Notes: generated by a model from the letters alone, not told the origin. Shown: positions 7,957 to 29,091, counted from the first letter of the stretch. The stretch: DNA of 64,000 nt from an uncultured Pseudohongiella sp. (GCA_964622925.1 CAZUSL010000181.1:785-64784), one strand, 5' to 3'. A program made the numbers and translations.

Positions 7957-7961
7957 ACGTT

Positions 7962-7977: not shown

Positions 7978-8065
7978 TTTTCTCGCCAATGCGGTGAGAT
8001 GAGGAAAATCACTACCCGCGCCTCGTCGTCAGGCTGAGCCCGGGAAGGTGGAGGAGAGAATCAAG

Positions 8066-11023
8066 GTGGGTGTCAGGTTTTATGCAAAGTCGCCGCTGGC
8101 CGCGGCGGTGTCGCTCGCATTGGCCGGCGGAGCGGCGTATGGACAACAGGCGGAACCGGGAGCACAACAGATCGAACAGATCGTGGTAACCGGCATTCGC
8201 CAGAGTTTGAGAGCGTCGATGGACCTGAAGCGGAACACGGATGGGGTCGTCGACGCAATCACCGCCGAGGACATCGGCGACTTTCCTGACAGCAACCTTG
8301 CTGAATCCTTGCAGCGGATCACGGGAGTCTCCATCGACCGTGAACGCGGCGAAGGCGCGCGGGTAACGGTTCGCGGCTTTGGCCCGGACTTCAATCTCGT
8401 CCTGCTTAACGGCAGGCAGATGCCGACGACGAGCGGGCTGGGCCGATCCTTCGACTTCGGCGATCTCGCCTCCGAAGGCATCTCCGCGGTGGAAGTCTAC
8501 AAGAGCGGCCAGGCCGACGTGCCCACCGGCGGCATCGGTTCCACCCTGAACATCCGCACCACGCGGCCGCTGGATGCTCCGGGCAGGAACTTCACCGCGG
8601 CATTGAGCGGACTGAACGATCAATCCACCGAAACCGGCGACAGCCTGACTCCCGAAATGTCCGCGCTGTTTTCCGACACCTTCGCCGACGATACCGTCGG
8701 AATCGCGCTCAGCGCGGTTCGCCAGGAGCGGAACAACGGCGCCGGTACCGTGAGCGTCGGCGGCTGGCGCACTTTCCCGGGCGAAACCGACAACTGCAGG
8801 TGCGGCATCGGACCGTCCGAATGGGGCGGCATTCCTCCTCATACCGACCCCAACCAGCAGAACCGGCCCGGTCAAGGCGACCTGTATTCCGTGCCCCAGT
8901 CCATTGGTTATGAAATGGCCGAATGGGATCGGATCCGCACCAATGGCCAGCTTACCTTGCAGTTCCGCCCGGCCGACAATCTGACGGCTACGCTCGATTA
9001 CACATATTCCGAGCTGGAACTTTCCCGCTCTTACAGCAATCTGTCGGCCTGGTTCAATTTCGGCGGCCAGGAAACGCTCTGGACCGACGGTCCCCAGGCC
9101 AGCCCGCTGATCTACACCGAGAATTCATCCAATTCCGACTTCTCGATGGGCGGCGGCGAGGATGCCTGGCGCACCCAGAACGGCTCCACCGGGCTGAACC
9201 TGGTCTGGGACGTATCCGACAGGTTGACGATGGAATTCGACTACCACGATTCCGACGCCAAGCGTTCGCCCAACAGCCCTTTTGGCGACTCGGCCCTGCT
9301 GTCGACCGCTGCTTTCACCCGCGACCGGACCACGGGCTATTTCGGCAACGATCTGCCGATTCTCGAACTCGGACTGAACGACCCGCTGTCGCCCGACGAC
9401 ATGATCGTCACCGGCAGCGTGTTTACCAACAACCTGTCGAAGATGGACATCAACCAGACGACGGCGTCGGGCACCTATAACCTCGACCTTGATTTCGTCG
9501 AGTCAATCGATTTCGGCATTCAGCTCACCGAAGTGAACAACCGCTCGGCGGGTTCGGTCGTGCAACGCGACGCCTGGGGCGGCGTTACCCAGCGCGGGGC
9601 GATCGCCGACCTGCTGACGCCGGCGTCGTCCGCGAGCGCTTTCGAGAACATTCCCGGCGGCGGCGACCCGCGCCGGCAGACACAGTTCTACACCTTCGAC
9701 ATGTCCGACCTCGTCGCCAGAACCGAGCAGCTCCTGAGTTCGGGCGAGGCGAGTCCATTCTCCGCGCCTCACAGCGGCGACTGTTTCTCGGATCTATGTT
9801 CGTCGAGCAATTTCAATTCCGACCGGCGCACCCAGGAAGAGTCGCTGGCGGTGTACTTCCAGGCTCACATGGCCACCGAACTCGGCGATGTTCCCCTGGA
9901 TATCCGGTTCGGCATGCGTTACGAGGAAACGGACATCGCCTCCCAGGCGCTGTCCCCTGCTTTCACCGGGATCAATTGGGTAGCCGGCAATGAATTGTCG
10001 GCGGTGCAAGGCGCTCCGGATTTCACTTCTCTGGAAGGCAACTATGGAATCGTCTTGCCGAACCTGGATCTGAAGTTCGACCTGACGCCGGATCTGGTAG
10101 CGCGGGCTTCCATCAGCAGAACGCTGACGCGGCCGAACTACGACGATATCCAGGGCGGCCAGACTATCAACCAGTTGCTGCGAATCGACGGCGGCACGGG
10201 TAATCGCGGAAACCCGAACCTGTTGCCCTTCGATTCCCTGAACCGGGACGTTTCCGTGGAGTGGTATTACGCCGAAGACAGCTACGCTGCGGTCGGCTAC
10301 TTCCTCAAGGACGTGGAGAACTTCAGCGGTACCTCGTCGGTGGTTGAGGAAACCTTCGGTCTGCCGCACCCCACGCTTGGCCCCCTCGGTCAGGAAGCAC
10401 GGGCTGCCACGGGCAGTTCCGACGGCGGTACACTTTACGGCTGGATTCTGGAGAATCGCGCCGACGCACAGGGCGTCAACGCCGAAACCGGCGTCATCTC
10501 CGGTGTAGCGGGACGCGACCCGGCGTCGCCTTTCAACCTCACGGTGCCAGTCAACATCGAGCAGGCCCAGATGGAAGGCTGGGAAGTTGTGGTGCAGCAC
10601 AATTTCGGCGATACCGGTTTCGGCCTGATTGCCAACGCCACCATCGTCGATGCCGACGTGGGCTACGACAACTTCAGCCTCGCCCAGCAATTCGTATTGA
10701 CCGGACTGAGCGACTCGGCGAACTTCATCGCCTTCTACGACCAGAACGACATCAGCGTGCGGCTGGCCTACAACTGGCGAGACGATTTTCTCGCCGGCAC
10801 CGGCCAGGCCAACGTGGGCGCCGGGCCACCCACCTACGTCGCGGCGTATCAGCAGGTCGATGTCAGCGCGAGCTGGTGGGTGACCGAGAACTGGCAGGTT
10901 TTCGCGGACATCCTGAACCTGACCGACGAGACGACCCACGTCTACGGCAGGGACAAGAACCAGACGCTGTTCGCCGCCCAGTCGGGCCCGCGCTACAACA
11001 TCGGCTTCCGCTACAAGTTGTAA
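8066..11023 (+). CDS. TonB-dependent receptor (carbohydrate-utilisation type)
   Basis: GTG 8066 is preceded by GGAGGAGAG (the ORF-track start 8048 is also possible). There is a signal peptide ending AAYGQQ. The plug region is DAITAEDIGDFPDSNLAESLQRITGVSIDRERGEGARVTVRGFG..LLNGRQM, followed by a long beta-barrel. Confidence 0.93.
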   Translation: MGVRFYAKSPLAAAVSLALAGGAAYGQQAEPGAQQIEQIVVTGIRQSLRASMDLKRNTDGVVDAITAEDIGDFPDSNLAESLQRITGVSIDRERGEGARVTVRGFGPDFNLVLLNGRQMPTTSGLGRSFDFGDLASEGISAVEVYKSGQADVPTGGIGSTLNIRTTRPLDAPGRNFTAALSGLNDQSTETGDSLTPEMSALFSDTFADDTVGIALSAVRQERNNGAGTVSVGGWRTFPGETDNCRCGIGPSEWGGIPPHTDPNQQNRPGQGDLYSVPQSIGYEMAEWDRIRTNGQLTLQFRPADNLTATLDYTYSELELSRSYSNLSAWFNFGGQETLWTDGPQASPLIYTENSSNSDFSMGGGEDAWRTQNGSTGLNLVWDVSDRLTMEFDYHDSDAKRSPNSPFGDSALLSTAAFTRDRTTGYFGNDLPILELGLNDPLSPDDMIVTGSVFTNNLSKMDINQTTASGTYNLDLDFVESIDFGIQLTEVNNRSAGSVVQRDAWGGVTQRGAIADLLTPASSASAFENIPGGGDPRRQTQFYTFDMSDLVARTEQLLSSGEASPFSAPHSGDCFSDLCSSSNFNSDRRTQEESLAVYFQAHMATELGDVPLDIRFGMRYEETDIASQALSPAFTGINWVAGNELSAVQGAPDFTSLEGNYGIVLPNLDLKFDLTPDLVARASISRTLTRPNYDDIQGGQTINQLLRIDGGTGNRGNPNLLPFDSLNRDVSVEWYYAEDSYAAVGYFLKDVENFSGTSSVVEETFGLPHPTLGPLGQEARAATGSSDGGTLYGWILENRADAQGVNAETGVISGVAGRDPASPFNLTVPVNIEQAQMEGWEVVVQHNFGDTGFGLIANATIVDADVGYDNFSLAQQFVLTGLSDSANFIAFYDQNDISVRLAYNWRDDFLAGTGQANVGAGPPTYVAAYQQVDVSASWWVTENWQVFADILNLTDETTHVYGRDKNQTLFAAQSGPRYNIGFRYKL

Positions 11024-11042
11024 GTGCTGATTGCGCACCAGG

Positions 11043-11072
11043 AAAGGCTGCCCTCCGGGGCAGCCTTTTTTG
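11043..11072 (+). terminator. Rho-independent terminator after the TBDR gene
   Basis: AAAGGCTGCCC, loop TCCG, GGGCAGCCTTT: a perfect 11-bp stem followed by a T-run. Confidence 0.8.
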
Positions 11073-11106
11073 TATCATCGGTCCCCCAGGCAGGATTGGT
11101 GGTGTG

Positions 11107-12666
11107 ATGAATCGGCCAACGCGGAGAGTCGTCATCGTGGGTGGCGGTACAGCGGGCTGGATCACCGCTTGCGTGATCGCGGCCGAATCCCTGAAACGCG
11201 GGGACGACGCGGCCGAAGTCGTGTTGATCGAATCTCCCGATATCCCCATCATCGGCGTGGGCGAAGGCACCTGGCCTTCGATGCGCACGACGCTCCAGCG
11301 CATCGGCCTCGCCGAGGACGAGCTCATTCGCGAATGCAGCGCCAGCTTCAAGCAGGGCACCCGTTTTCGCGCCTGGTCGGGACTGCCCGGGAATCCGGAA
11401 TACATCCACCCTTTCAGCCTGCCGCTGGAATACTCCGATCTCAATCCCGCGAAATTCTGGCTCGCCCACGGCTCCAGCACGGCTTTTGCCGACCTGGTCA
11501 CCCCCCAGGCGCGCGTGATCGAACTCGGGCTCGCGCCGAAACAGGCGGGCGCCCCGCAATACGCGTTCACCGTCAACTACGGTTATCACTTCGACGCCGG
11601 CGCGTTCGCCGGATTGCTGCATCGGCACGCTGTCGGGAAACTCGGCGTGCAATACATCGCCGGCAACGTCGAAGGCATCGAGTCGGACGCGGATGGGGAC
11701 ATCGCCGCGGTCGCTCTCGACACCGGCGAACGCGTGCCGGGTGACCTGTTCGTCGATTGCACCGGCCAGAAAGCGCTGCTGATCGGCGCGCATTACGGGA
11801 GTCCGCTTGTCTCGGTCAAGGATGTGCTGTTCAACGACAGGGCCATCGCGGTGCAGGTTCCCTATGCCGGACCCGGCGATCCGATCGCTCCCGTGACCTT
11901 GTCGACGGCGAAGGCGCATGGCTGGATCTGGGATATCGGCCTCAGCAGCCGCCGCGGCGTCGGCTACGTTCATTCGAGCGCTCATGCCGATGAGGAAACA
12001 GCCCTTGAAGCGCTGCAGGCCTATGTCGCGGAGACTTCTCCGGGCATCGATCTTGCGGGTCTCAGCTATCGGACGATTCCCTTCGAGCCGGGCTATCGCG
12101 AACGCTTCTGGATCAGAAACTGCGTCGCGGTGGGACTGTCGGCGGGTTTTGTTGAACCTCTCGAAGCCTCGGCCCTCGTGCTGATCGAACAATCGGCGGC
12201 CATCATCGGCGAACAATTGCCGCGCGACCGGGAAATCATGGATGTCGTCGCCGGACGATTCAACGACAAGATGCGCTACCATTGGCTGCGAATCGTCGAG
12301 TTTCTCAAGTTGCATTACGCGGTCAGCGCACGCGAGGACAGCGACTACTGGAGGGAAAACCGGGCGCGGGAAACCTGGCCCGAAAGCCTGCGCGAAAAAA
12401 TCACGCTATGGCAGCAACAGCCGCCCTGGCATGACGACGCGCCCCGGCTCGACGAGTTGTTTCCTTCCGCGAGTTATCAATACGTACTCTACGGAATGGG
12501 TTTCAGACCGCGCTATTGCGCGACCGCCGAAGCGCAGGACGAGCGGATGCGCAAGCGGGCGGACGAAGTTTTTCATGGCGTGCAGATAAAAGCCCAGCAA
12601 ATGGCGCGCCTGCTGCCGGAGACGAGAGAACTCATCAACGCCATCACGAATCGTGCTGCTGCATAG
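11107..12666 (+). CDS. Tryptophan-halogenase-family flavoprotein (paralogue 1)
   Basis: ATG 11107. N-terminal VVIVGGGTAGW FAD fold, with later GYHFDA and FVEPLEASA segments typical of the family found next to TBDR genes. Confidence 0.85.
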   Translation: MNRPTRRVVIVGGGTAGWITACVIAAESLKRGDDAAEVVLIESPDIPIIGVGEGTWPSMRTTLQRIGLAEDELIRECSASFKQGTRFRAWSGLPGNPEYIHPFSLPLEYSDLNPAKFWLAHGSSTAFADLVTPQARVIELGLAPKQAGAPQYAFTVNYGYHFDAGAFAGLLHRHAVGKLGVQYIAGNVEGIESDADGDIAAVALDTGERVPGDLFVDCTGQKALLIGAHYGSPLVSVKDVLFNDRAIAVQVPYAGPGDPIAPVTLSTAKAHGWIWDIGLSSRRGVGYVHSSAHADEETALEALQAYVAETSPGIDLAGLSYRTIPFEPGYRERFWIRNCVAVGLSAGFVEPLEASALVLIEQSAAIIGEQLPRDREIMDVVAGRFNDKMRYHWLRIVEFLKLHYAVSAREDSDYWRENRARETWPESLREKITLWQQQPPWHDDAPRLDELFPSASYQYVLYGMGFRPRYCATAEAQDERMRKRADEVFHGVQIKAQQMARLLPETRELINAITNRAAA

Positions 12667-12672
12667 ACAACC

Positions 12673-13434
12673 ATGCCGAATTACGCGCTGCTCAATAACG
12701 TCAACCACGCCGAGGTCAGGATCATCACCGACCGCGCTGCCCGTTACGGCGACAGCATCATGCAGGCGCCGGTGTTTCCCTTCGAGTTCCGCAACGCGCA
12801 GGCCTGTTATCCGATCCTGTTCCGGCAGGATAGCGCGGGCGATTTCTCTCCGCTGGCGCTGTTCGGATTCGAGCAGGGAGAAAACCTGTTTCTCGACGAT
12901 TCCGGCTGGCAGGCGCCCTACATACCCGCCATGGTGCGCCGCGAGCCCTTTCTGATCGGATACCAGGAATCGGGCAGCGAGGGCGAACCCTTGCGCACCC
13001 GGGTGCTGTCGATCGACATGGACCATCTCAGGGTCAATACCGAACATGGCGAGCCGTTGTTTCAGCCACTGGGCGGCCGCACGCCTTATCTCGAAAACGT
13101 TGCCGATCTGCTGGAATCGATCTGGCTCGGCCTCGAACACAGCAAGACTTTTGTCGGCGCCATGCAAAGACACGATCTGATCGAATCGATGACGCTCGAA
13201 ATCGAATTGAAGGACGGCTCGCGCAACCAGTTGATCGGCTTCCATTGCCTGAACGAGGAGAAGATCCAGGGGCTGTCCCCGGAGGCGCTTGGAGAATTGA
13301 ACGCCAACGGTTTTCTCATGCCGATGTACATGGTGGTCGCTTCCATGGGCAATCTGCAGGCGCTCGCCGAACGAAAGAACGCGAATCTGGGTGAAAGCGG
13401 CGATGCGCGCGAAAGAGCTGAGCCCGATGTCTGA
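12673..13434 (+). CDS. SapC family protein
   Basis: 253 aa. The N-terminus ..LNNVNHAEVRI..PVFPFEFRNAQACYPILF and its position between halogenase-like genes in a TBDR locus match SapC-family proteins (recognised from memory). Confidence 0.75.
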   Translation: MPNYALLNNVNHAEVRIITDRAARYGDSIMQAPVFPFEFRNAQACYPILFRQDSAGDFSPLALFGFEQGENLFLDDSGWQAPYIPAMVRREPFLIGYQESGSEGEPLRTRVLSIDMDHLRVNTEHGEPLFQPLGGRTPYLENVADLLESIWLGLEHSKTFVGAMQRHDLIESMTLEIELKDGSRNQLIGFHCLNEEKIQGLSPEALGELNANGFLMPMYMVVASMGNLQALAERKNANLGESGDARERAEPDV

Positions 13435-14474: not shown

Positions 14475-15965
14475 ATGCAAAATCGCAAGATTCACAAGAT
14501 CGTCATCGCCGGCGGCGGCACCGCGGGCTGGATGGCCGCCGCGGCCCTGTCGCGGCTGCTCGGCAAGACCCTGAGCATCACCCTGGTGGAATCCGAAGAG
14601 ATCGGCACGGTCGGCGTCGGCGAAGCGACCATCCCTACCCTGATCACCTATCACGATCTGATCAAGGTCAAGGAGCAGGATTTTCTCAAGGCGACCCAGG
14701 GCACCTTCAAGCTCGGCATCAAGTTCGAAAGCTGGCGCGACGTAAACGAGGACTACATCCATTCCTTCGGCTGGACCGGCAAGGACAGTTGGGCGGCTGG
14801 ATTCCAGCATTTCTGGCTCAAGGGCCTGAAGATGGGCATCGCCCGCGAGTTCGGCGAATATTGCAACGAATGGGCCGCCGCGGTGCGGAACAAGTTCGCG
14901 GTGATGCCGAGCCTGGGCCTGAACTACGCCTATCACATAGACGCTTCGCTCTATGCGAAATTCCTGCGCGGCATCGCCGAGGAACACGGCGCGGTGCGGC
15001 AGGAAGGCAAGATCGAATTCGTCGAGCAGGATCCGGACAGCGGATATATCACCGCGATCCGCCTGCAATCGGGGCAGGTCATCGAAGGCGATCTGTTCAT
15101 CGATTGCACGGGTTTTCGCGGCTTGCTGATCGAGCAGACGCTCAACGCCGGCTACAACGACTGGAAGCACTGGCTGCCCTGCGACAGCGCCGTCGCCTTG
15201 CAGACCGAATCGGTCGAAGAGCCGATCCCCTACACGCGCTCGATCGCCCGCGAAGCCGGCTGGCAATGGCGCATTCCCTTGCAGCATCGCGTCGGCAACG
15301 GCGTGGTCTTCAGCAGCCGGCACTGGAGCCCCGACGAGGCGATCGGAAAGTTGCTCGAAAACGTCGAAGGCAAGGTGCTTACCGAACCGCGCGTGATCCG
15401 TTTCAATGCCGGCCAGCGGCGCAGGCACTGGTACAAGAACTGCGTCGCCATGGGCCTGTCGTCGGGCTTCATCGAGCCCCTGGAGTCGACTAGCATCCAC
15501 CTGATCCAGCGCTCGATCATCCGCCTGATGCAGATGTTCCCTTACGACGGCATCCGAGAGCCGGACGTCGAGGAATTCAACAACCAGATGAAGTTCGAGA
15601 TCGACAACGTGCGCGATTTCATCATCCTGCATTACCACGCCACCAATCGCACCGACACCCGCTTCTGGCGTCAGTGCCGCAACATGGACATCCCCGATTC
15701 GCTGAAACATCGCATCGAGTTGTTCAAGCAGGCGGGGCGCGTGTTCAAGATACCGACCGAACTGTTCGGCGAGAATTCATGGATCCAGGTAATGCTGGGC
15801 CAGGGACTGCTGCCGGAGCAATATCACCCGATCGTCAACATGATGAGCGAGGAGGAACTGGACCGATTCCTGACCTCGATCCACGGCTCGGTCGAGAAAC
15901 TGGTCGGCCAGCTTCCCTCGCATCAGCAATTCATCGACCACTATTGCAAGGCGCAACCCGTCTGA
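14475..15965 (+). CDS. Tryptophan-halogenase-family flavoprotein (paralogue 2)
   Basis: IVIAGGGTAGWMAA, GYAYHIDA-like and FIEPLESTS segments. It is collinear with 11107..12666. Confidence 0.85.
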   Translation: MQNRKIHKIVIAGGGTAGWMAAAALSRLLGKTLSITLVESEEIGTVGVGEATIPTLITYHDLIKVKEQDFLKATQGTFKLGIKFESWRDVNEDYIHSFGWTGKDSWAAGFQHFWLKGLKMGIAREFGEYCNEWAAAVRNKFAVMPSLGLNYAYHIDASLYAKFLRGIAEEHGAVRQEGKIEFVEQDPDSGYITAIRLQSGQVIEGDLFIDCTGFRGLLIEQTLNAGYNDWKHWLPCDSAVALQTESVEEPIPYTRSIAREAGWQWRIPLQHRVGNGVVFSSRHWSPDEAIGKLLENVEGKVLTEPRVIRFNAGQRRRHWYKNCVAMGLSSGFIEPLESTSIHLIQRSIIRLMQMFPYDGIREPDVEEFNNQMKFEIDNVRDFIILHYHATNRTDTRFWRQCRNMDIPDSLKHRIELFKQAGRVFKIPTELFGENSWIQVMLGQGLLPEQYHPIVNMMSEEELDRFLTSIHGSVEKLVGQLPSHQQFIDHYCKAQPV

Positions 15966-17906: not shown

Positions 17907-18029
17907 AAATATCCCTTCAATTTCCGGAAACGTTTCGCCCGTGTTTTGAAGAGTGCGTGATTCAAAGACACGCATTGACCGGTTACACTCTTTCGGCATA
18001 GATTGACCAGCCTGTTTGGCCTGCCAATC

Positions 18030-18674
18030 ATGATGAGCAGCACCTCGTACTACAACCAGAACCGGGACGCGCTGTTCGAGCAGTATCACGCCTACGACCC
18101 GGAGGTGGTTCATCGCGCCTGGGCGCCGGAGCATCTCAAGGGGCGAAAGCCCGGATTCGCTTGCGACATCGGTGCGGGCACCGGCCGGGACGCCAACTGG
18201 CTCGCCGAACAGGGATGGGAAGTGCTAGCGGTCGAGCCGAGCGACTTGCGCGAACCGGGAGAGGGAAAGTCCAATCCGCGCGTAACCTGGCTCGACGACA
18301 CGCTGCCGGACCTCCGGAAACTGCGCGCCCTGGGCCGGCGATTCGACCTGATCCTGCTGCGCTCGGTCTGGATGCATGTTCCCAGGTCCAGTCAGGAACG
18401 GGCTTTCCGCATCCTCACCGAACTGCTGAATCCCTCAGGCCTGCTCGTAATCAGCTTGCGGCACGGCAGCGACGAGGAGGAAAATCAGGCGCGCGGTTTC
18501 CACTCTGTCAGCGCCGATGATTTGATCCGCTACGCCAGGGACTGCGCCATCAGTCTGCGAGGCCAATACGAACATCCCGACCGGTCGCGGGACCATGTCC
18601 ATTGGGAGTGGCTGGTTTTCGAGATGCCATCCAAACCAAACTTACTTGTTGAAGCATTAGCATTGGCTTGCTAG
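18030..18674 (+). CDS. Class I SAM-dependent methyltransferase
   Basis: ATG 18030 (TTG 18003 is possible). CDIGAGTGRDANWLAEQGWEVLAVEPS is SAM-binding motif I. The last ~15 codons run into AT-rich DNA. Confidence 0.7.
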   Translation: MMSSTSYYNQNRDALFEQYHAYDPEVVHRAWAPEHLKGRKPGFACDIGAGTGRDANWLAEQGWEVLAVEPSDLREPGEGKSNPRVTWLDDTLPDLRKLRALGRRFDLILLRSVWMHVPRSSQERAFRILTELLNPSGLLVISLRHGSDEEENQARGFHSVSADDLIRYARDCAISLRGQYEHPDRSRDHVHWEWLVFEMPSKPNLLVEALALAC

Positions 18675-19358: not shown

Positions 19359-20741
19359 ATGAACATTTATCCGGCTATGCGAGCGGGCATGGGAACATGG
19401 GAATACTATATCGTGAAGATGCGTATGGAAGACTTGGTTAAGGAAGTTGAGTTCGCTCATGAAATTCACGACAACAAGACCCTAGATGAGGCAATACAGC
19501 GAGGCCTTAATCAAGGAAGAGTGAAGCAGGAGATCGTGAGGTATCTTGCTTTTTCTGAAGATCGATTTTTTAATTCCATTGTGGTTGCTGCACTTGGGGG
19601 CAATCCAAGATTTAGTCCGGTTTCGATTGATGAAGATCCTCAATTCAACCTTATTGGCAGAGATGAATTTAATGACACATTCGGAGTTCTTAGCTTCGAT
19701 GGGAAGCAACACTACTATGCCTTAGACGGCCAACATAGGCTTATGTCAATTAAGACGCTATTGGAGCAGAAAGAGAAAGATGTTCCAAATTTGCCCGATG
19801 GATTTCAAGACGAAGAAATTTCAGTAATAATGCTTGTAAAACAAAATAAAGATGAAAATTTTATGAGAAGTTATAGGAGAATTTTCTCAAACCTAAACCG
19901 GTATGCGAAACCAACTGATGCCGATACTAACATAATCATGGATGAAGATGATCCGTTCGCAATTCTAACTCGAAGACTACTGACGGATCATGAATTCTTC
20001 TGGTGGGGCGGAAAGGCGACTGATTCACCCAAAGTGAAGACGCAAGGGAAAAATTTGAAATCTGGAGAACCATACTTTACCTCATTACAAACCCTTTACA
20101 GTATGAATAAGACTTTGCTTAAGTCTCCAGCAAGAGAAAAGGAACTTTACGGATCAAAAGATTTTCAGAGATTCAGGTCGGGTGAAGATGTCCTAGACGA
20201 ATTATATGAGGAGTTGGCAATATATTGGGATTCATTGATTGAAGCGCTACCTGTACTAAGGTCTGATGCTACAAGAATGAGAACCCATTCGATTGCAGAT
20301 CAAGACCAAGCACATGAAGAAGGAAAGGAGCCACTAACAGATCACTTGCTGTTTTGGCCAATCGGACAGGACATATTAGCCAAAATGGCAAGGTTGTTGC
20401 TTAACCGTCGTTTACCAGATCCCGACAACCCCAGCAAAGAGGAGGCAACCGCCTGTCTAGAGGTTTTAAACACCGTCAATTTGGAATTGCACTCCCCGCC
20501 GTGGCGCAATGTACTGCTGGTACCTGACCCTGTTAAAGATGGTACATGGCGAATGCGTAGTGAAGAGCGAAAACAAGCTGTAGAAGTGAGCGAACGGATT
20601 CTAAGGATGATGACAGGCATTGATGATCTGGGTAAGGAGGAAAGCCTAGAGCTAAAGACAGAATGGCATGCTCTGCTGTGGCCTAGGCCCGAGAAACGTG
20701 AAGTAGATGAATGGTGGGATACTATCTGCGCTCGTAAATGA
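19359..20741 (+). CDS. DGQHR-domain protein (DndB-like; SspF-like?)
   Basis: RBS TAGGAG lies 6 nt before ATG 19359. It has an exact DGQHR motif in HYYALDGQHRLMSIKTLL and an N-terminus (RAGMGTWEYYIVKM..FNSIVVAALGG) like the DndB/DGQHR family. Confidence 0.85.
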   Translation: MNIYPAMRAGMGTWEYYIVKMRMEDLVKEVEFAHEIHDNKTLDEAIQRGLNQGRVKQEIVRYLAFSEDRFFNSIVVAALGGNPRFSPVSIDEDPQFNLIGRDEFNDTFGVLSFDGKQHYYALDGQHRLMSIKTLLEQKEKDVPNLPDGFQDEEISVIMLVKQNKDENFMRSYRRIFSNLNRYAKPTDADTNIIMDEDDPFAILTRRLLTDHEFFWWGGKATDSPKVKTQGKNLKSGEPYFTSLQTLYSMNKTLLKSPAREKELYGSKDFQRFRSGEDVLDELYEELAIYWDSLIEALPVLRSDATRMRTHSIADQDQAHEEGKEPLTDHLLFWPIGQDILAKMARLLLNRRLPDPDNPSKEEATACLEVLNTVNLELHSPPWRNVLLVPDPVKDGTWRMRSEERKQAVEVSERILRMMTGIDDLGKEESLELKTEWHALLWPRPEKREVDEWWDTICARK

Positions 20742-20750
20742 TAGTTGCCC

Positions 20751-21575
20751 CTATTGCTGCTGGCTGAATTTTCTATACAGCACTTTACAAGGGCTGCGAC
20801 GATCCTTTGCGAACGAGATGGCGTCCGGATGGAGGATTCTCAAATGATTAATTTGCTTTAAGCCGATATCTAAAAGTATCGAAATTCCGTCTAATGTTTT
20901 CTTATCTGGTTCATACTGATACAGAACTGGAATTGGAAGGCTCGCCAAATTTTTGGAGTAACCAACTTCCCACGGATAGTTCGCATCTGATCCACTTTCA
21001 TCATAGTTGGTTGAGAGTTTAAACAGCGCGCGGCGTAGACAAGTAATTTTTGGAGATCTCCAACTGCGGAGTCGGACCTCAATGCCCAGAGATATCCAAG
21101 GCAACCAACTTCTCCAATCATCTACAGGCAAACCATTGAACTTTCTGATCTCTGAATCTATCGATTGAATAAAGTTGTGCCGCAATTTTCCATTTGTATG
21201 GAAACAATCATCAGAAATTATCCAAGCCAACTTATCCGACGACGGTCTTCCCGTTGCTGTTAAGTTTTGACCTAGCAATTGAAATGTATCATATGCATCA
21301 CTAACTGCAAATTTCTGCCTTTTTGTTAACTTTAGGTCGCAACCAATTCCATCTTCTCTTTCGAAATTTAGCTCATCTAGAAGTTGTGAAATTGTATAGT
21401 CTTTAGGCAATCCCATTAGAATACTACGTAGTTTCGGAGCAATATTTAGCCCGCACAAGGAGGAGCAATGAAGAGATTCGTCAGCCAATTTCTGATAATT
21501 TTCGACATTAAACAACTTTCGAACCATTGAATTAGTCCTTCTTGATAGAATGTTGGGAATATCCAAAATTGACAT
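20751..21575 (-). CDS. Hypothetical protein, 274 aa, no recognisable domain (SspG-like position)
   Basis: A long ORF in AT-rich DNA, where spurious ORFs are rare. It lies 39 nt downstream of the SNF2 gene on the same strand. I could recognise no motif. Confidence 0.6.
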   Translation of the reverse strand: MSILDIPNILSRRTNSMVRKLFNVENYQKLADESLHCSSLCGLNIAPKLRSILMGLPKDYTISQLLDELNFEREDGIGCDLKLTKRQKFAVSDAYDTFQLLGQNLTATGRPSSDKLAWIISDDCFHTNGKLRHNFIQSIDSEIRKFNGLPVDDWRSWLPWISLGIEVRLRSWRSPKITCLRRALFKLSTNYDESGSDANYPWEVGYSKNLASLPIPVLYQYEPDKKTLDGISILLDIGLKQINHLRILHPDAISFAKDRRSPCKVLYRKFSQQQ

Positions 21576-21614
21576 GTCTACATCGCCTTAGTCACAGAAT
21601 TAGGAAATGGAGTT

Positions 21615-23258
21615 TTACAGAACATCGTTGAATTCTTTTGGCGTTAATTCTCTATCGTCTTGCGAATCAGTGCTAAGCTTTGAAATTATGCTGGAAAACA
21701 GCTCAAATTTGGAATTGAGAATCTCTTCGAGTCTTGATTCGACTGTGTTGATAGTCCTTAACTTGTATACATTGACATCCTTCTTTTGGCCGATTCGATA
21801 TACTCTATCTCTAGCTTGACTGTTTATGGCCGGATTCCACCACTCATTCAGGAATATCACATGATTAGCGGAAGTTAGTGTTACTCCTTCAGCCATCGCG
21901 CGTGTTGTACAAAGAAGTATGGAAGGTTGTGCACACACTTGAAATTTGCTAATTATCTCAATTCTGTCACTGGCTGATGATGATCCAGTCAGGATGGCCA
22001 GATAACTATTGCTCCTGAACTCCTTCTCCAGCCTTGCATTTAGTTCCGCAAGGGGGCGTACAAGATAGGAAAAGATTACAACTTTTTCATCTAACTGTTG
22101 AATTGCTTTCACCAATTCGATGGCGCGATCAATTTTGGAACTGCGACCGGTTTTTGGATCGAAGTCACAGATTTCCCGCAATTGTCCAAAAATCTTAATC
22201 CAATTGGCGAGTCTAGAAGTATTGCTTCGTTTGACTATTTCATTATAGGCATCTCGCTGTTCACTGATTAGCGGTATGTGCTCGATTTTCTCAAATATAT
22301 TCGGAAGTTCATTGGATATAACCTTTTTGTTTCGCCGAAGAATGTACTTTGACGCTAGAGTTCGCAATGAAGCAGATCCAAGTTTTCCATCGCTTATTGC
22401 GACTCTTTTTCGATCAATTAGATGTAGTATGGAAGCAAGTTCAATGGGCCTGTTTTCTAATGGTGTGCCTGAAAGTCCCCATGTAATATTGGGAAATATG
22501 TCGTAAACGGATTTATAAGAATTAGATTTGTAATTCTTGAGTTTGTGTATTTCATCTAATATGACAAGATCAAATGTGCCAGATTTAGGTCTGCTGAATC
22601 TTACAGTCTCGTAGTTTGTAATGGCAACGTGACATTGATCGCCTATGGTAGTCCAAAGATTCTCAGATACGGTGGCAAAGACGGAAACTATACATAGATG
22701 AGGCGCCCACAATTTGAGTTCTGCTTCCCATACCCCTATAAGTGATTTTGGGCAAATAACCAACGCACTTCTGATTTTTCTATCTCGTAGTTGATGATCA
22801 AGGGCAGCGATTGCTTGAAGAGTCTTGCCCAGGCCCATATCGTCAGCCAAAATTCCAGATTCGCGGCCCTTTAGCCAAGTCATTCCAGCTTCTTGGTGTT
22901 CCTTGAACGGATAGCTTGGAAGAAATCGAAGTAAGCGAAATCGCCAAATCTCTCCTATATTAAAGAAAGCTGTGTCTCGGTTGGCCTTGTTAATTCTTAT
23001 AGCCTGAGGGTCGGCTTGTGGAATCAGTATATTCTTCGACTTGGCTGAAGAAGATATTCTTCCTAGTTCAGTACGCGTAGAATACAACTCTTCCTTTAGT
23101 AAGTATAGTTCTTTGGAGTTAAGGTAAAAAAATTCATCAGAGAAAAGCGCATCATCAATTTCTGGGAATTGCTTAATTTCTGGATACAATCCAATTTCGA
23201 GACCTATAGAGCTGCGCTTAATCTCGCAAATACTGGAATTATGTCGATCTACACTCAT
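21615..23258 (-). CDS. SNF2-family helicase, short form (547 aa; SspH-like?)
   Basis: ILADDMGLGKTLQAIA (motif I), DLVILDEIHKLKN (motif II), LSGTPLENRPIELASIL (motif III), and the C-terminal helicase segment LTSANHVIFLNEWWNPAINSQARDRVYRIGQKKDVNVY. Confidence 0.9.
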   Translation of the reverse strand: MSVDRHNSSICEIKRSSIGLEIGLYPEIKQFPEIDDALFSDEFFYLNSKELYLLKEELYSTRTELGRISSSAKSKNILIPQADPQAIRINKANRDTAFFNIGEIWRFRLLRFLPSYPFKEHQEAGMTWLKGRESGILADDMGLGKTLQAIAALDHQLRDRKIRSALVICPKSLIGVWEAELKLWAPHLCIVSVFATVSENLWTTIGDQCHVAITNYETVRFSRPKSGTFDLVILDEIHKLKNYKSNSYKSVYDIFPNITWGLSGTPLENRPIELASILHLIDRKRVAISDGKLGSASLRTLASKYILRRNKKVISNELPNIFEKIEHIPLISEQRDAYNEIVKRSNTSRLANWIKIFGQLREICDFDPKTGRSSKIDRAIELVKAIQQLDEKVVIFSYLVRPLAELNARLEKEFRSNSYLAILTGSSSASDRIEIISKFQVCAQPSILLCTTRAMAEGVTLTSANHVIFLNEWWNPAINSQARDRVYRIGQKKDVNVYKLRTINTVESRLEEILNSKFELFSSIISKLSTDSQDDRELTPKEFNDVL

Positions 23259-23576
23259 TCAATCAGTTCCTGGATTTTTGATTACTAGCAAGAAAAGTCC
23301 GCTGTATATCTAGAAACGGATTTCTGATATCGAAATTTTGGAAAATTGTGTAATGATTGACGTATTTTTTCATCTAATTGGGCTAAATTGTCAGTTTAGA
23401 GATTTCAACGCATACATTCGCTAATCGTAGTGTGAAAGATGTCTTGTACCTAAAAGCAGTCGGAGATTCAACAAAAATTAAGCAAAACAGGTATACATGC
23501 CGAGTATAGTGTAAGATGGTGCTCGCGGAAGGGATGGCGAGCGAAGTTTTGTATTCGCGTAAACTGCTGATATTTA

Positions 23577-24503
23577 ATGAAATTTAGTACCTCACAAGTC
23601 GCATTCGGACGCCACGAGAGCTTCCATCTGCGATTCTGTTGGCTTTCCAAGGGATTTACAGAACTGCAACGCGACCCGACACTTGTCTCCGATGTGGATC
23701 AAGCTACGCTTGCCCTAGGTGTTGGCAAGAACATGGTGGTGTCTATCCGATATTGGTTGCGGGCGGCTCGGATGATAGGAGAATCGGACAGCAGCTCCAC
23801 TGAACTGGGCGGCTTCCTGCTTCATCCGAGCCACGGGAAAGATCCGTTCCTTGAGGACGAGGGAACATTGTGGCTACTCCACTGGCTCATCGCTTCCAAT
23901 ACGGAGACCGCAACTACCATTGCCTGGTTTTTTAGTAAATTCCACAAACCCCGCTTTAGTCAACAAGAGTTGCGTGCCGCCCTAGGGGCCTATCTGCAAA
24001 GCTCTGTCGAGTCTTACAGAAGACCGGCAGCAAGTACGCTGCGGACCGACGTGTCAGTCCTCGCGAGAACCTATGCAAGACACCAGGGCGCAAGCTTAGT
24101 CGAAGAGCTGATGGATTCGCCGCTGGCCGAGCTTGGACTGATTACGGAAACCAGGAAAAGCAGCTACCAATCATTATTCGGTGAGCGCCCGAGCTTGCCT
24201 TGCGAAATACTCGGATTCGCATTGCTGCAACTGTTGCAACGCCGGGACGTTCAGGTCTTGCCTCTTGAAGATGTACTCCAGTCCACGGACGGGTACGTAT
24301 CCCCAGGTACGATTTTTCGCCTGACCGAAGCAGGTTTGATGAGCAAACTTGAAGAACTTGAAAAAGCCTACCCGCACATTTTCGATCTACGCGAGACTGC
24401 AGGCTTACGGCAACTTTTCTTGCGACAGGAATTACCTGCCATTGAGCTACTAGAGTCCTACTACCAGCAGGGGTCCAGAGTGGCACCGGAGGTCGCGGCA
24501 TGA
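23577..24503 (+). CDS. sspB: DUF4007-like protein (SspB-like)
   Basis: The N-terminus FGRHESFHLRFCWLSKGF matches my memory of the DUF4007 family hallmark. Its stop overlaps the next ATG (ATGA 24500-24503). Confidence 0.65.
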   Translation: MKFSTSQVAFGRHESFHLRFCWLSKGFTELQRDPTLVSDVDQATLALGVGKNMVVSIRYWLRAARMIGESDSSSTELGGFLLHPSHGKDPFLEDEGTLWLLHWLIASNTETATTIAWFFSKFHKPRFSQQELRAALGAYLQSSVESYRRPAASTLRTDVSVLARTYARHQGASLVEELMDSPLAELGLITETRKSSYQSLFGERPSLPCEILGFALLQLLQRRDVQVLPLEDVLQSTDGYVSPGTIFRLTEAGLMSKLEELEKAYPHIFDLRETAGLRQLFLRQELPAIELLESYYQQGSRVAPEVAA

Positions 24504-27500
24504 GCTTGGCTGATTACGTTCAAGTAAGAACGGCCTATACGCGGTCAATCAACCTGGAACGAGACTCAAAGTCGAAAGGAGTCGAATGCACCTATATCCC
24601 GACCACTCGCGCACTGCGCACTCTCGCAACGATTACAGAACGCTTTAGCAACGAGGACCAGCCACGTTCCTGGTCCTTGGTCGGGCCCTATGGATCGGGT
24701 AAGTCCTCATTTGCACTGTTTTTGTCCGAACTCCTAGGCAGTCAGAAGTTGCCCCATACGAAAACTGCATTGACTCAGCTTGGAAGGAACGACAGTCTTT
24801 TGCACTCCCGATTTCTGGAGGAGACAAAGGCCTCCGATGGGTATGTATCCGTACTTGTCTCCGGCACCCCTGAGCGGCTGTCTTTGAGGTACTTGAATGC
24901 CTTGATGACTGCCGTTGGCGAGTATTGGATCGGTAGGCGGGGTAAGAAGCCGCGCATTTTCGACAAGATGCGAGGATTCAGGGAAGCAGGACAGGTCTCT
25001 ATTTCGGAACTACTGGAACTTACTCAGGAATGCCAGCAGGTACTTTCCAAAGTTGGATGTCCGGGGATACTCGTAGTTTTCGATGAGTTCGGCAAATTCC
25101 TCGAGTACGAATCACACACACCCGATGCCAATGACGTCTTCCTGTTGCAGGCCTTGGCCGAACATGCCTACACGGCCAGCGAAACGAAGCTGCTTGTAAT
25201 TGCGCTGCTTCATCAGTCGATCGAGCAATACGCGCTCGGAGTTGGCGAAACCCTCAAAAACGAATGGGCAAAGATTCAGGGCCGATTCGAAGAAGTCCCT
25301 TTTATCGAAACTGCCGAGCAAACTCTGCGCGTTGTCCGGGCGGCATTGGCACATCGAGAGTTCGACTCCGAATCCCGTGGTCAAATCGAAGCTGATGTCC
25401 TCAAAGCCGTGGAAATTTTACAGGGCGAAGGCGTATTAACCGATTTTCAGGACGTAGCCGAGACCGCCAAGCTATTCGCCGGTCTGTATCCCCTTCATCC
25501 CATCAGCGCCATTATTCTTCCCTACCTCTGCCAGTTGATTTCTCAGAACGAGCGTAGCCTTTTCGGTTATCTGGGAAGCAGGGAGCGAGATGGATTTCAG
25601 GACATGCTTGAGCGAATTGGCTCGCTAGGTGAGTTCATCAGGCCCGACCATCTTTTCGACTATTTCCTGGCCAACCAGCAGTCCATCTATGGAGACTACC
25701 TGACTCAACGTCGCTGGGCTGAGTCGGTATCCGCGGTCGAACGAGTCGCCGATGCCACCAAACAGCAGATGGCGATTCTAAAGGCGGTAGCTCTGGTCAA
25801 TCTACTAGGAAACCGGGGTCGAGTCAGGGCTTCTGAAGCACTGATCCGTTCAGTATATGGGCCTTCCGCTTCGAAGGACCTTAAAGCACTGCAAGAGGCT
25901 TCGGTCCTCATTCATCGTAAGTTCAATAACGAATTCCGTGTTTGGCAGGGGAGTGATTTTGATCTTGAGTCTCGATTGAGGGAGCAGGCTAACCAACTCG
26001 GCCCATTTTCATTGGCGGAAGAATTGACGAGATATAAGGCGGTCGCCCCAATCGTGGCTCGCAAATACAGTATCGAGAAAGGAACGCTGCGCTACTTCGA
26101 CGTTGAGTTTGTGGACGCCTTGACTTGGGAAAAAACAGAAAAAAAGGGAAATCCACAAATCTTCTTGTTTCTGAGTGCGGGCAGAGACGACACACATATA
26201 TACGAGCAGAAAGCCAGAGGCCACCTTGCCAGACACGGTTTGGTTGCACTTTCCCATGCCGGTCAATCTTTGAAGTCTTTGGTCTCCGAGCGCCTGGCGT
26301 TGGAGGAAATAGAAAGAACCGCGAAAGAACTTGCCGAAGATCCCGTTGCGCGCAAGGAACTTAAAGCACGGCTTGAGGTCGTGAAACACTTTGAGGCAAC
26401 CCACATCTCGCACTTGCTCGACAATCCTCAGCAGCTTGACTGGCGTTTCGGCGCCTGCGAACTTCCGGTTGCCTCGCGTCGGCAGTTCCAGTCACAACTG
26501 TCTTCCGTGCTTGAGGAGATATATCCCAACTCTCCCGAAATCCACAACGAACTGATCAATCGAGATCGGCTTTCCTCGCAGGCGGCCGCTGCCCGAAACA
26601 AACTGCTTTCCTTGCTGCTGACGGACACGGACAAGGAAGACTTGGGAATTGATCCGAAGAAGTTCCCTCCAGAAAAAGCGATTTATAGAGCCACGCTGAA
26701 AGAGACCAAGATTCACAAAGAGACATCGAAAGGTTGGGCGCTTCATGCGCCCCCTAAAAACAGCTCGCTGTTCGATGCCTGGAACCGAGTCGAGAAATTT
26801 CTGGCCTCCACTGAAGACGAGGCTCGCCCGTTCACCGCCATAAACGCTGAGTTGATGAATCGGCCTTATGGAGTGAAAGCGGGCATCCTGCCTATTCTGT
26901 GGATTTGCGTTTACCTTGTTTACGAGTACGAGATCGCCTTGTACGAGAACGGCCGTTATATCCCTGGATTCACCGCGGAGGCCTTGGAGCGGTTCGTAAA
27001 GCGTCCAGATTTGTTTCAGGTACAAAGGTTTCGCATTCAGGGATTACGCAAATCCATTTTTGAGCAATACCGCAAAGTCATAAGCGGTGGGGCGCAACCT
27101 AAAACAATCCTGCATGTCGCCAAACCATTAGCAGCGTTTATGCATGAACTTCCAGAGTACACATTGAAGACAAGAGTGGGTCTATCCCACCAAGCAATAG
27201 CGGTTCGGGAGGCCTTTCAACTAGCGAAGACTCCCAAGAATCTCCTGTTCGAGAGATTGCCAATGGCGCTTGATTATCGAGGCAGGGGCAGCGACCCCGA
27301 CGAGCGCATTGATAGTTTCGCAGAACAGCTAAAAGAGGTGCTGCGGGAGTTCAAGAACGCCCATGCAAGGATGAAGGATGCGTTACGGGAGAGATTGGCG
27401 GAGACGGTTGGTCTCAATCCTAAACTGCCACTTGCAGACTTGAGAGCGCAAAGCTTGGGGCGCTGCCATGGTCTTGAGAACCAGACTGTAGACGTTCATG

Positions 27501-27991
27501 GGCTGCGCGGCTTGCTTCTCAGAATCAATCGCGAAGAAGGCTCCGACGAGCAGTGGTTAGAGAACATCCTGATGTTTCTTGCCGCGAAGCCAAGCACGAA
27601 GTGGACCGATACGGACAGGAACGAAGCCGAATACAAACTTGCCGAGTTCGCACGTAGACTAGCAGACCTCTACCGGCTCGCAGCCGAAGAGCGGCGCATC
27701 CAGCTCAGCGGCAACCAGGATTTCGACGTGTACTTGCTTAAGTCATTGAAATCTGGCGGACAATTTCTTGATGAGATCATCACCATCGACCGCGAAAAGC
27801 AAGAGCACACCAGGAATATCAAGCAAGAAATCGAGGCCGCATTGCAGAAATCGGGCAATCGCGACTTGCAACTCGCGGCCCTCGCACAAGTTGTCGACGA
27901 ATTCTTGAAATCCTCGGACCAGCCGTCAAAATTAACAGGGGCTGACGAAGAGACGCCCGCCATAAACTTTGTCCGAGATCGCAAGTCGTAA
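24500..27991 (+). CDS. sspC: Large P-loop ATPase, 1163 aa (SspC-like)
   Basis: Walker A LVGPYGSGKSSFALFL and Walker B ILVVFDEFGKFLEY. It is translationally coupled on both sides. Confidence 0.75.
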   Translation: MSLADYVQVRTAYTRSINLERDSKSKGVECTYIPTTRALRTLATITERFSNEDQPRSWSLVGPYGSGKSSFALFLSELLGSQKLPHTKTALTQLGRNDSLLHSRFLEETKASDGYVSVLVSGTPERLSLRYLNALMTAVGEYWIGRRGKKPRIFDKMRGFREAGQVSISELLELTQECQQVLSKVGCPGILVVFDEFGKFLEYESHTPDANDVFLLQALAEHAYTASETKLLVIALLHQSIEQYALGVGETLKNEWAKIQGRFEEVPFIETAEQTLRVVRAALAHREFDSESRGQIEADVLKAVEILQGEGVLTDFQDVAETAKLFAGLYPLHPISAIILPYLCQLISQNERSLFGYLGSRERDGFQDMLERIGSLGEFIRPDHLFDYFLANQQSIYGDYLTQRRWAESVSAVERVADATKQQMAILKAVALVNLLGNRGRVRASEALIRSVYGPSASKDLKALQEASVLIHRKFNNEFRVWQGSDFDLESRLREQANQLGPFSLAEELTRYKAVAPIVARKYSIEKGTLRYFDVEFVDALTWEKTEKKGNPQIFLFLSAGRDDTHIYEQKARGHLARHGLVALSHAGQSLKSLVSERLALEEIERTAKELAEDPVARKELKARLEVVKHFEATHISHLLDNPQQLDWRFGACELPVASRRQFQSQLSSVLEEIYPNSPEIHNELINRDRLSSQAAAARNKLLSLLLTDTDKEDLGIDPKKFPPEKAIYRATLKETKIHKETSKGWALHAPPKNSSLFDAWNRVEKFLASTEDEARPFTAINAELMNRPYGVKAGILPILWICVYLVYEYEIALYENGRYIPGFTAEALERFVKRPDLFQVQRFRIQGLRKSIFEQYRKVISGGAQPKTILHVAKPLAAFMHELPEYTLKTRVGLSHQAIAVREAFQLAKTPKNLLFERLPMALDYRGRGSDPDERIDSFAEQLKEVLREFKNAHARMKDALRERLAETVGLNPKLPLADLRAQSLGRCHGLENQTVDVHGLRGLLLRINREEGSDEQWLENILMFLAAKPSTKWTDTDRNEAEYKLAEFARRLADLYRLAAEERRIQLSGNQDFDVYLLKSLKSGGQFLDEIITIDREKQEHTRNIKQEIEAALQKSGNRDLQLAALAQVVDEFLKSSDQPSKLTGADEETPAINFVRDRKS

Positions 27992-28854
27992 TGCACTTTT
28001 CAGAGCTACCGCAACAGGGAGACAACGAAACCCGGCACGTCCTCGGGCTGTCCGGGGGCAAGGACAGTGCCGCCTTGGCCATCTACCTGAAAGACCACTA
28101 CCCGGCCATCAGTGAGCGGGTAGAGTACTTTTTCTCCGATACCGGCGCCGAACTGAAAGAGGCTTACGAGTTTCTTGATCGGCTGGAAACCTGGCTCGGC
28201 AAGGAGATCGTCCGCCTCAGCACCGGCCGCGAATTCGATCATTGGCTCAAGGTCCACAACGGCATGCTCCCTTCGGCGCGGCAGCGCTGGTGCACCCGGA
28301 CCATGAAGATTCAACCTTTTGAAAGATTTGTAGGGGATGACCCGGTCATAACCTATGTCGGCATAAGGGCGGATGAGCAACGGGAGGGCTATATCAGCAC
28401 CAAGCCAAGCATCAAGGCCGTATTCCCATTCATCGAGGACGGCATCGCCAAGGCGGACGTGTTCCGGTTCCTCGAAGAAACTGTCGGCGTGCCCGAATAC
28501 TACAAATGGCGCTCGCGGTCTGGCTGCTACTTCTGCTTCTTCCAGCGCCAGGACGAGTGGCTGGGATTGAAAGAGAACCACCCCGAACTCTTCGAACGGG
28601 CAAAGCGCTATGAAATGCGCAAGCGGGAGCGCTACGACCTCGATGTCGCTGGCACCAGCCTCGTCGGTAGCGGCAACTACACGTGGAGCAGCGAAGGAAC
28701 TCTCGACGAGCTCGTAACGAAAGCCGAAAAGCGCCGCAAGGAATTGGGCGTCATCGCCAGCACCGCGGACAAGAACAAACGCTGGCAAGACCTCCTCCTC
28801 GAACAAGACGAAGACGACCCCGAAGACCAGGCCTGCCTAATTTGCTCGCTCTGA
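27991..28854 (+). CDS. sspD: PAPS-reductase-family PP-loop ATP pyrophosphatase (SspD-like)
   Basis: PP-loop LGLSGGKDSAALAIYL. Two CxxC pairs are present (CYFC, CLIC). ATG 27991 overlaps the upstream TAA (TAATG). Confidence 0.8.
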   Translation: MHFSELPQQGDNETRHVLGLSGGKDSAALAIYLKDHYPAISERVEYFFSDTGAELKEAYEFLDRLETWLGKEIVRLSTGREFDHWLKVHNGMLPSARQRWCTRTMKIQPFERFVGDDPVITYVGIRADEQREGYISTKPSIKAVFPFIEDGIAKADVFRFLEETVGVPEYYKWRSRSGCYFCFFQRQDEWLGLKENHPELFERAKRYEMRKRERYDLDVAGTSLVGSGNYTWSSEGTLDELVTKAEKRRKELGVIASTADKNKRWQDLLLEQDEDDPEDQACLICSL

Positions 28855-29091
28855 GGCTGCCTCCATTTCATCGATCGACTTTGCTTCGCCTTTGTAGGCG
28901 AGACACCCAAATACTTGCTCTGGATGGGTTTCAGGGAAATGCGGGTAAGCCTTCAACAGGACGCCATCAGGTCTATCCTCCACAAGTAGGCGAGTGCCAG
29001 CTTTCCAGTGGCGCGCCTTACGGATGGACTTGGGCAGGACAATCTGCCCCTTGGCGGAGACAGTTGTCGTAATCCGACTATCCTCAGGCAT
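28837..29091 (-). CDS. AbrB/MazE/SpoVT-family antitoxin-like DNA-binding protein (orphan)
   Basis: TTTVSAKGQIVLPKSIRKARHWKAGTRLLVED is a swapped-hairpin AbrB motif. The C-terminal FGCLAYKGEAKSIDEMEAA is typical of VapB-type antitoxins. No toxin ORF lies downstream. Confidence 0.8.
   Translation of the reverse strand: MPEDSRITTTVSAKGQIVLPKSIRKARHWKAGTRLLVEDRPDGVLLKAYPHFPETHPEQVFGCLAYKGEAKSIDEMEAASERAN

Follow-up and report, generated by a model that had tools for sequence, protein, structure and literature searches.

A GIY-YIG, DGQHR and SNF2 gene set linked to sspBCD in Pseudohongiella and other bacteria: a candidate effector module of phosphorothioate defense

The stretch of DNA considered here, hereafter the window, comprises 64,000 nucleotides (nt) from an uncultured Pseudohongiella sp. 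(GCA_964622925.1 CAZUSL010000181.1:785-64784), and it harbors an island of seven genes with a low GC content against a background of approximately 60-62% GC. Three of the genes, sspB, sspC and sspD, code for a DNA phosphorothioate (PT) modification module, and the others code for a GIY-YIG nuclease, a DGQHR-domain protein, a protein of 274 amino acids (aa) and an SNF2-family ATPase (Table 1). The core made of the GIY-YIG, DGQHR and SNF2 proteins, joined at this locus by the 274-aa protein as a helper, is probably a defense effector partner of SspBCD. The GIY-YIG gene ends 30 nt before the DGQHR gene on the same strand. The open reading frame (ORF) for the 274-aa protein converges on this pair at a distance of 9 nt and is separated by 39 nt from the SNF2 gene, which in turn lies 318 nt from the start of sspB on the opposite strand. 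An ORF map of the window agrees base for base with the gene order and gaps of the original prediction, an earlier reading of the same DNA that had placed here a plus-strand DGQHR gene, a 9-bp gap and a convergent minus-strand pair. The SspB-like gene from which it described the SNF2 gene as diverging is a bona fide sspB according to PADLOC. Its parts list was right for the DGQHR and SNF2 genes, but it overlooked the GIY-YIG gene 30 nt upstream.

The linkage of these genes was investigated by mapping all island proteins onto 85 independent DGQHR-anchored loci from Proteobacteria, Actinobacteria and metagenomes. Four are genome loci (a metagenome-assembled Gammaproteobacteria genome, Pseudohongiella, Aestuariivita and Solirubrobacterales), and 80 are metagenome loci, at 40-52% identity, selected from 192 relatives. 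Of the 72 loci with at least 500 nt of upstream sequence, 70 have a GIY-YIG gene immediately before the DGQHR gene in the same orientation, and a SNF2 helicase of approximately 550 aa is adjacent in 32 of the 33 loci with at least 2.5 kb downstream. Co-occurrence with the Ssp module across genomes, which had been set beforehand as the deciding test, was also found, as sspB, sspC and sspD are present in 23 of the 24 loci of at least 9 kb, across phyla and in several gene orders. The carriers belong to the Gammaproteobacteria, Alphaproteobacteria and Actinobacteria. Among all SNF2-bearing loci, 33 have the SNF2 gene downstream and collinear, 17 have it in convergent orientation and two have it upstream; in the 33 collinear loci, the GIY-YIG, DGQHR and SNF2 genes share one strand. 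The sole long locus devoid of a SNF2 gene, L055, contains a DDE transposase fragment and sspD remnants and is therefore rearranged. In locus L090, sspB, sspC and sspD are followed on the same strand by the SNF2 gene, with 118 nt between sspD and the latter, and sspBCD and the SNF2 gene are likewise on one strand in L091. The catalytic motifs of the three core proteins are intact and conserved at 40-60% overall identity (44-78 non-identical homologs). Because it recurs across 85 independent loci, the arrangement goes far beyond chance, and the linkage of the GIY-YIG, DGQHR and SNF2 genes with sspBCD is near-obligate and multi-phylum, with coupling down to the operon level.

Table 1. Genes and spacer of the Pseudohongiella island, with positions in the window
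Feature	Position	Strand	Evidence and predicted role
GIY-YIG nuclease, 154 aa	18864..19328	+	PF01541; first gene of GIY-YIG/DGQHR operon; predicted DNA-cutting subunit
DGQHR-domain protein (ParB/Srx-fold, DndB-like), 460 aa	19359..20741	+	PF14072, TIGR03187; predicted NTPase, modification-status reader
274-aa all-alpha accessory, optional	20751..21575	-	no family match; predicted DNA-binding or specificity adaptor
Minimal SNF2-family ATPase, 547 aa	21615..23258	-	PF00176 + PF00271; predicted dsDNA translocase
Intergenic spacer SNF2/sspB, 318 nt, 36.8% GC	23259..23576	.	divergent geometry; presumed promoters for both units
sspB (DUF4007), PT modification	23577..24503	+	PF13182 252 bits; PADLOC SspB E 4.9e-81
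sspC (BrxC-like ATPase), PT modification	24500..27991	+	PADLOC SspC 1223.7 bits, E 0
sspD (PAPS-reductase-like sulfurtransferase), PT modification	27991..28854	+	PADLOC SspD E 1.3e-101; PF01507

The DGQHR protein belongs to its superfamily with 115.5 bits for PF14072 and 118.9 bits for TIGR03187. The QR, DGQHR and FxxxN motifs have been defined, and the DGQHR domain has been related to the DGQQR domain of DUF262 proteins, in earlier work (PMC4619093). These motifs (Q47-R48, D123-GQHR-127 and F176xxxN180), as well as M194-DEDD-198, are conserved in an alignment of 78 sequences. The protein also harbors a conserved C-terminal extension of approximately 150 aa, and its C-terminal domain is possibly HEPN-like, by analogy with Makarova 2013. 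With at least 1345 clusters at E<=1e-30, this is a large subfamily, and the source names of its members are limited to ‘DGQHR domain-containing protein’ or ‘DndB’. No solved relative was found by sequence search of the PDB.

The GIY-YIG protein obtains 25.6 bits with Pfam PF01541, for which the cut-off is 22.6, and it is thus placed in the GIY-YIG superfamily. Its ORF of 154 aa uses a TTG start; in the identical Logan contig L089, the public gene call is of 152 aa, which corresponds to a start at 18870. The protein is 45% identical to the product of a 158-aa gene at the same position in the distant locus L004, and among 76 sequences, G45, Y47, Y75, G77, R85, E124 and N136 are at least 95% conserved, with H89 at least 80% conserved. 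The GIY-YIG protein is the likely catalytic effector. A sequence search of the PDB yielded no solved relative for it either. In the multi-megabase assembled contigs of L090 and L091, the GIY-YIG ORF is present (9265-9729 and 9502-9969, respectively) and was omitted from the original gene calls, so that annotation-based surveys may miss the nuclease of the module.

The SNF2 protein matches SNF2-rel_dom (PF00176, 137.1 bits) and Helicase_C (PF00271, 59.5 bits), and its translation contains motifs I (DDMGLGKT, 139-146), II (DEIH, 235-238), III (SGTP, 263-266) and VI (481-491), all conserved among 44 sequences; motifs I to III and the C-terminal helicase domain had been recognized in the original prediction. 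The N-terminal region of approximately 117 residues is variable. The nearest solved structure is 1Z63, the minimal dsDNA translocase core of a Rad54-like protein of Sulfolobus (E 2.4e-52), and the best PADLOC scores for the core come from the helicase models of ZorD and DpdE, with ZorD at the top.

The 274-aa ORF has no match in Pfam, NCBIfam or PADLOC, in line with its first description as an ORF with no recognizable motif. An alternative start at Met17 would yield 258 aa, as in public gene calls; in the sister locus L005, the ORF is conserved from residue 6 despite the public start at Met17. A word-indexed search indicated that the protein is rare, with five matches among 5.8 billion clusters, and SNF2 and sspBCD genes adjoin it in all the contigs that carry those matches. 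A profile search of 1.84 billion representatives collected 97 members of the family. The long ones (726-1051 aa) have Sigma70_r4 helix-turn-helix (HTH) and RpoA-CTD domains N-terminal to the 274-aa-type domain, and such forms occur among the representatives and in loci L009 and L013. The presence of these domains points to a role as a DNA-binding accessory for the family. Homologs of 730-1050 aa had been considered as fusions with SNF2, but Pfam assigns them the Sigma70_r4 HTH and RpoA-CTD domains instead. A helix-hairpin-helix, suspected from motifs such as LCGLNIAPKLRSIL, was confirmed by no tool.

The AlphaFold/Foldseek check that had been proposed has an outcome for the 274-aa protein, with a confident model and no structural match. 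With an alignment of 34 sequences, the protein is predicted to be all-alpha (pLDDT 85.9, pTM 0.83), and a Foldseek search with this model returned nothing in the PDB or BFVD (best E>1, TM<0.2), so that the modeled fold appears to be absent from both databases. This run replaced a first one with six sequences, for which the pLDDT was 57 and the Foldseek matches were noise.

Wherever it is present, the 274-aa gene faces the DGQHR gene in a convergent orientation, the 3′ ends of the two being -4 to 125 nt apart. Among 37 assessable loci, nine have a member of the 274-aa family, 17 have a member of a distinct family denoted X284, 11 have neither and none has both. X284 proteins, of approximately 250 aa and without a Pfam match, are encoded directly upstream of the GIY-YIG gene in loci of the collinear type (8695-9549 in L008; also in L015, L026, L027, L033 and 17 other loci). 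They were envisaged as divergent members of the 274-aa family, but hhalign gave a probability of at most 0.1%, and the two families are separate. By eye, X284 contains a ‘DGxxR’-like segment that might be a degenerate ParB motif. The original prediction had counted the 274-aa protein as a core member; given its presence in nine of the 37 loci and its mutual exclusion with X284, it is rather an exchangeable fourth subunit, replaced elsewhere by another family or by nothing. Another family, X493, of approximately 490-550 aa, recurs near loci of the collinear type (7138-8619 in L008; also L026, L036, L041 and L071) and shows weak matches to a homing-endonuclease-associated HTH repeat and to Methyltransf_23.

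The neighboring genes constitute a genuine SspBCD module, with a DUF4007 SspB, a BrxC-like SspC and a PAPS-reductase SspD in one operon. Two types of effectors have been described for such modules. SspE is a single polypeptide with an N-terminal DUF262 domain and a C-terminal DUF1524 domain of the HNH type. Its NTPase activity is stimulated by PT and it also nicks DNA (Xiong et al., 2020, as summarized in PMC8092258), and it is considered the ParB-superfamily equivalent of DndB (PMC10853773). The locus resembles SspABCD-SspE in that it combines the same sspBCD module with a predicted ParB/Srx-fold NTPase that has a DGQxR motif and would be coupled to a DNA-nicking nuclease. Unlike in SspE, these functions are not carried by one polypeptide: the reader is a DndB/DGQHR-type protein and the nuclease a distinct GIY-YIG protein, alongside which come a SNF2 protein and an optional accessory. 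The GmrSD_N/DUF262 model gives the DGQHR protein 17.9 bits for a cut-off of 33.2, Pfam detects no DUF1524 domain in the island proteins, and there is no DGQQR motif in the 64-kb window. The second type, SspFGH, is similar in being a multi-gene effector cassette beside sspBCD that includes an ATP-driven DNA motor. However, SspF has only a Walker A motif, the C-terminus of SspH is FtsK/SpoIIIE-like, and as described SspFGH has no DGQHR, GIY-YIG or SNF2 component (PMC8092258); there is no homology between the two sets. A PADLOC scan of the island proteins gave no match to models named SspE, SspF, SspG or SspH, the presence of such models in the library not having been checked. The idea that the locus might be an SspFGH variant with a similar three-gene make-up is thus not supported. 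Since the island contains neither SspE nor SspFGH and the rest of the 64 kb encodes no further DGQ[QH]R protein, the GIY-YIG/DGQHR/SNF2 module is the sole candidate effector in the island.

Three other systems share parts with the module. Like DndB, the DGQHR protein has a ParB-like DGQHR domain with intact QR, DGQHR and FxxxN motifs, but it is approximately 100 aa longer, scores 62.6 bits against a cut-off of 328 with the DndB equivalog TIGR03233, and is paired with a GIY-YIG protein outside of a dnd operon. No dndC, dndD or dndE gene is present here, the neighbors of the DGQHR gene being the GIY-YIG gene and sspBCD. Like Dpd, the island associates a DGQHR-type protein with a SNF2 helicase in a modification-based setting. 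In contrast, DpdE is a protein of approximately 1050-1290 aa of which only the helicase core is matched (79.9 with the NCBIfam DpdE model, cut-off 500), there is no DpdA (tRNA-guanine transglycosylase-type) or DpdC in the island, and no match to a DpdB model was obtained with PADLOC. The parallel with Dnd and Dpd drawn in the original prediction therefore holds at the level of the DGQHR and SNF2 domains and not as membership in either system. Finally, ZorD and DISARM DrmD similarly combine a SNF2 translocase and a nuclease against invading DNA, but ZorD is fused to a Mrr-type nuclease and needs ZorABC, whereas here the GIY-YIG protein would act in trans, in partnership with a PT system. The ZorD model NF041790 gives 121.9 for a cut-off of 1500, with the PADLOC match limited to the helicase part, and no zorABC genes are found in the island.

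The best reading of these comparisons is that the locus encodes an undescribed effector module of Ssp PT defense, distinct from SspFGH, SspE, canonical DndB, Dpd and Zorya. No description of it was found in the searchable literature, including broad comparative-genomics reappraisals of PT and BREX systems; subscription journals lay outside of the search and may describe the module. As regards the linkage, the gene neighborhoods lend strong support to the proposal of a helicase-containing effector, not described before, that goes with SspBCD; the reading of modification status that went with it would follow from domain relationships.

Related gene pairs have also been found in two more distant contexts, each with a full-length DGQHR relative and both plasmid-borne. 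The cultured strain Roseobacter litoralis B14 has, on plasmid pROLI83 (NZ_CP143425.1, 2135-14650), sspABCD followed by genes for a small protein, which marginally resembles the GIY-YIG protein (E 0.015), and for a DGQHR protein. Facing them in a convergent arrangement are genes for a PLD-family nuclease, a GHKL (HATPase_c_3) ATPase and a ResIII helicase. This set is apparently another undescribed candidate Ssp effector. In a plasmid of Rhizobium sp. NXC14 (NZ_CP021031.1, 7412-16705), genes for a GIY-YIG-like protein (a remote match, E 8e-6), a second DGQHR paralog and a methyltransferase are located immediately upstream of canonical dndBCDE and a cysteine desulfurase gene. Taken together, the two pairs suggest that a small nuclease-like protein and a DGQHR protein form a general PT-associated unit, which seems to take variable motor and nuclease partners.

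How the module might function can be proposed from the domains of its components. SspBCD writes single-strand PT marks, and its partner module would serve as the defense effector. The DGQHR protein, which shares the ParB/Srx superfamily with the N-terminal domain by which SspE senses PT, might bind DNA and read PT through an NTPase cycle, and the SNF2 protein would move the complex along double-stranded DNA. The GIY-YIG protein, which lacks a separate DNA-binding domain and whose gene is predicted to be co-transcribed just upstream of the DGQHR gene, would nick or cleave the target, with the 274-aa protein, or X284 elsewhere, contributing DNA contacts or specificity. The whole would be similar to an SspE split into a sensor and a nuclease, to which a motor has been added. 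We infer the defense function, the formation of a complex, PT reading by the DGQHR protein and the direction of PT dependence from these considerations, and we lean weakly toward an SspE-like licensing by PT over an attack on any unmodified DNA.

Several points weigh against an effector role coupled to SspBCD. The functional assignment draws on guilt by association and domain logic, and the Pfam score of the GIY-YIG protein is barely above the cut-off (25.6 versus 22.6 bits). Canonical DndB regulates transcription and is no effector. The GC content of the effector block differs from that of sspBCD, which possibly indicates separate histories, and the intact effector genes beside frameshifted sspBCD in L008 could mean that the effector is independent of SspBCD. 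The latter three observations bear on two other interpretations of the locus.

According to the first, the DGQHR protein would do for Ssp what DndB does for Dnd, acting as a repressor that responds to ATP and adjusts the expression of sspBCD and the density of PT; the nuclease and helicase would then form an effector of their own or be unrelated neighbors. Pfam and PADLOC indeed both match the protein best to DndB, an AT-rich divergent region presumed to hold promoters adjoins sspB, and published work documents that DndB regulates dnd transcription negatively (PMC4507180, PMC10853773). However, the protein falls far below the DndB equivalog cut-off given above, and its gene is never the first of an sspBCD operon, but comes after a GIY-YIG gene (70 of 72 loci) and in many cases shares an operon with the SNF2 gene. 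The conserved C-terminal extension and the MDEDD motif also argue against simple equivalence with DndB, and regulation would in any case be compatible with an effector role. We regard this interpretation as unlikely.

The second holds that the GIY-YIG, DGQHR, SNF2 and accessory proteins make up a self-contained, PT-independent helicase-nuclease system, ZorD-like in spirit, that merely shares an island with sspBCD. The affinity of the SNF2 core for the ZorD and DpdE helicase models is in keeping with it, as is a GC step located exactly at the SNF2/sspB boundary, with 40-48% GC for the effector genes, 52-58% for sspBCD and approximately 60% for the host, both in the window and in L005. Comparisons of the window with its sister loci L005 and L002, which for their part count in favor of the effector role, show 86% nucleotide identity for sspBCD and gshA versus 72-75% for the effector genes, and 99% protein identity for SspD versus 58-75% for the effector proteins. 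This suggests that the effector block evolves faster or has been exchanged, and the GC steps would reflect separate histories or different constraints. In L008, from a Solirubrobacterales metagenome-assembled genome, sspBCD (1893-7100) has at least eight frame changes in 5.2 kb, whereas the 5.9-kb effector block (7138-13050, five effector-side genes) and sspA are intact, with a similar homopolymer content. Either a decayed modifier lies beside a live effector, or there is a local assembly error. If the decay is genuine, it suggests that the effector is not lethal in the absence of the modifier, like SspE and unlike SspFGH, but this is a single case and another PT system in the L008 genome is possible. 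On the other hand, sspBCD accompanies the module in 23 of 24 long loci, across phyla and in several gene orders, it shares a strand with the SNF2 gene in L090 and L091, and the distant DGQHR pairs are also found beside PT-modification genes, of both the Ssp and Dnd types. Such near-obligate linkage is not expected from ordinary hitch-hiking in an island, which makes PT independence quite improbable.

A third possibility is that the module aids modification and not restriction, with the SNF2 protein opening DNA and the GIY-YIG protein nicking it for sulfur insertion by SspBCD; nicking is needed for PT insertion, and in Dpd the DGQHR-type DpdB is said to support the modification enzyme. This is very hard to reconcile with the published findings that sspBCD and IscS alone modify DNA in E. 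coli, that SspB is a nickase (PMC8092258; PMC12914056), and that SspE and SspFGH are both absent from approximately 84% of sspBCD loci (PMC8092258), the trio itself being optional.

The surroundings of the island bring few additional elements. It sits between a methyltransferase gene and gshA. The former, a class-I methyltransferase gene (18003-18674), was considered as a component and rejected, since it occurs in only six of 93 loci and has a host-like GC content. No tRNA gene and no sspA are present in the 64-kb window; without sspA, the module matches the sspBCD systems that use IscS (PMC8092258). No integrase turned up among the flanking ORFs scanned. Promoters for the SNF2 and sspB units are presumed, from geometry, to lie between them; a promoter and terminator scan gave nothing above shuffled expectation, and there is no match to a consensus promoter within 23259-23576. 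At the junction of the island with gshA, an ORF of 84 aa (28837-29091, minus strand) runs antisense to sspD and overlaps its 3′ end; the counterpart of this ORF in L002 (2588-2842) has a weak MazE/AbrB antitoxin match, and no toxin that might pair with it was noticed. A tryptophan halogenase gene (PF04820, E 5e-189; 14475-15965, plus strand) lies a few kb upstream of the island and is unrelated to it.

Most sspBCD modules have no known restriction partner (PMC8092258), which puts in question whether they defend at all, and a conserved and widespread candidate partner, carried by Pseudohongiella and other proteobacterial metagenome-assembled genomes among others, makes this question directly testable. 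On balance, although with reserve, we favor the idea that the module represents a third, widespread class of Ssp effectors, in which a DndB-type reader directs a GIY-YIG nuclease in trans, powered by a SNF2 motor and with exchangeable specificity subunits. The analysis has also exposed a small nuclease gene and added a confidently modeled protein family that has no structural relative. If this idea is correct, such a class would account for part of the approximately 84% of ‘orphan’ sspBCD loci, and new PT-reading nucleases or motors could serve to map or cut PT-modified DNA. DndB-like proteins could then be restriction components, beyond their role as regulators, and the DGQHR/DndB-like proteins would be recast as possible readers of modification within effector complexes.

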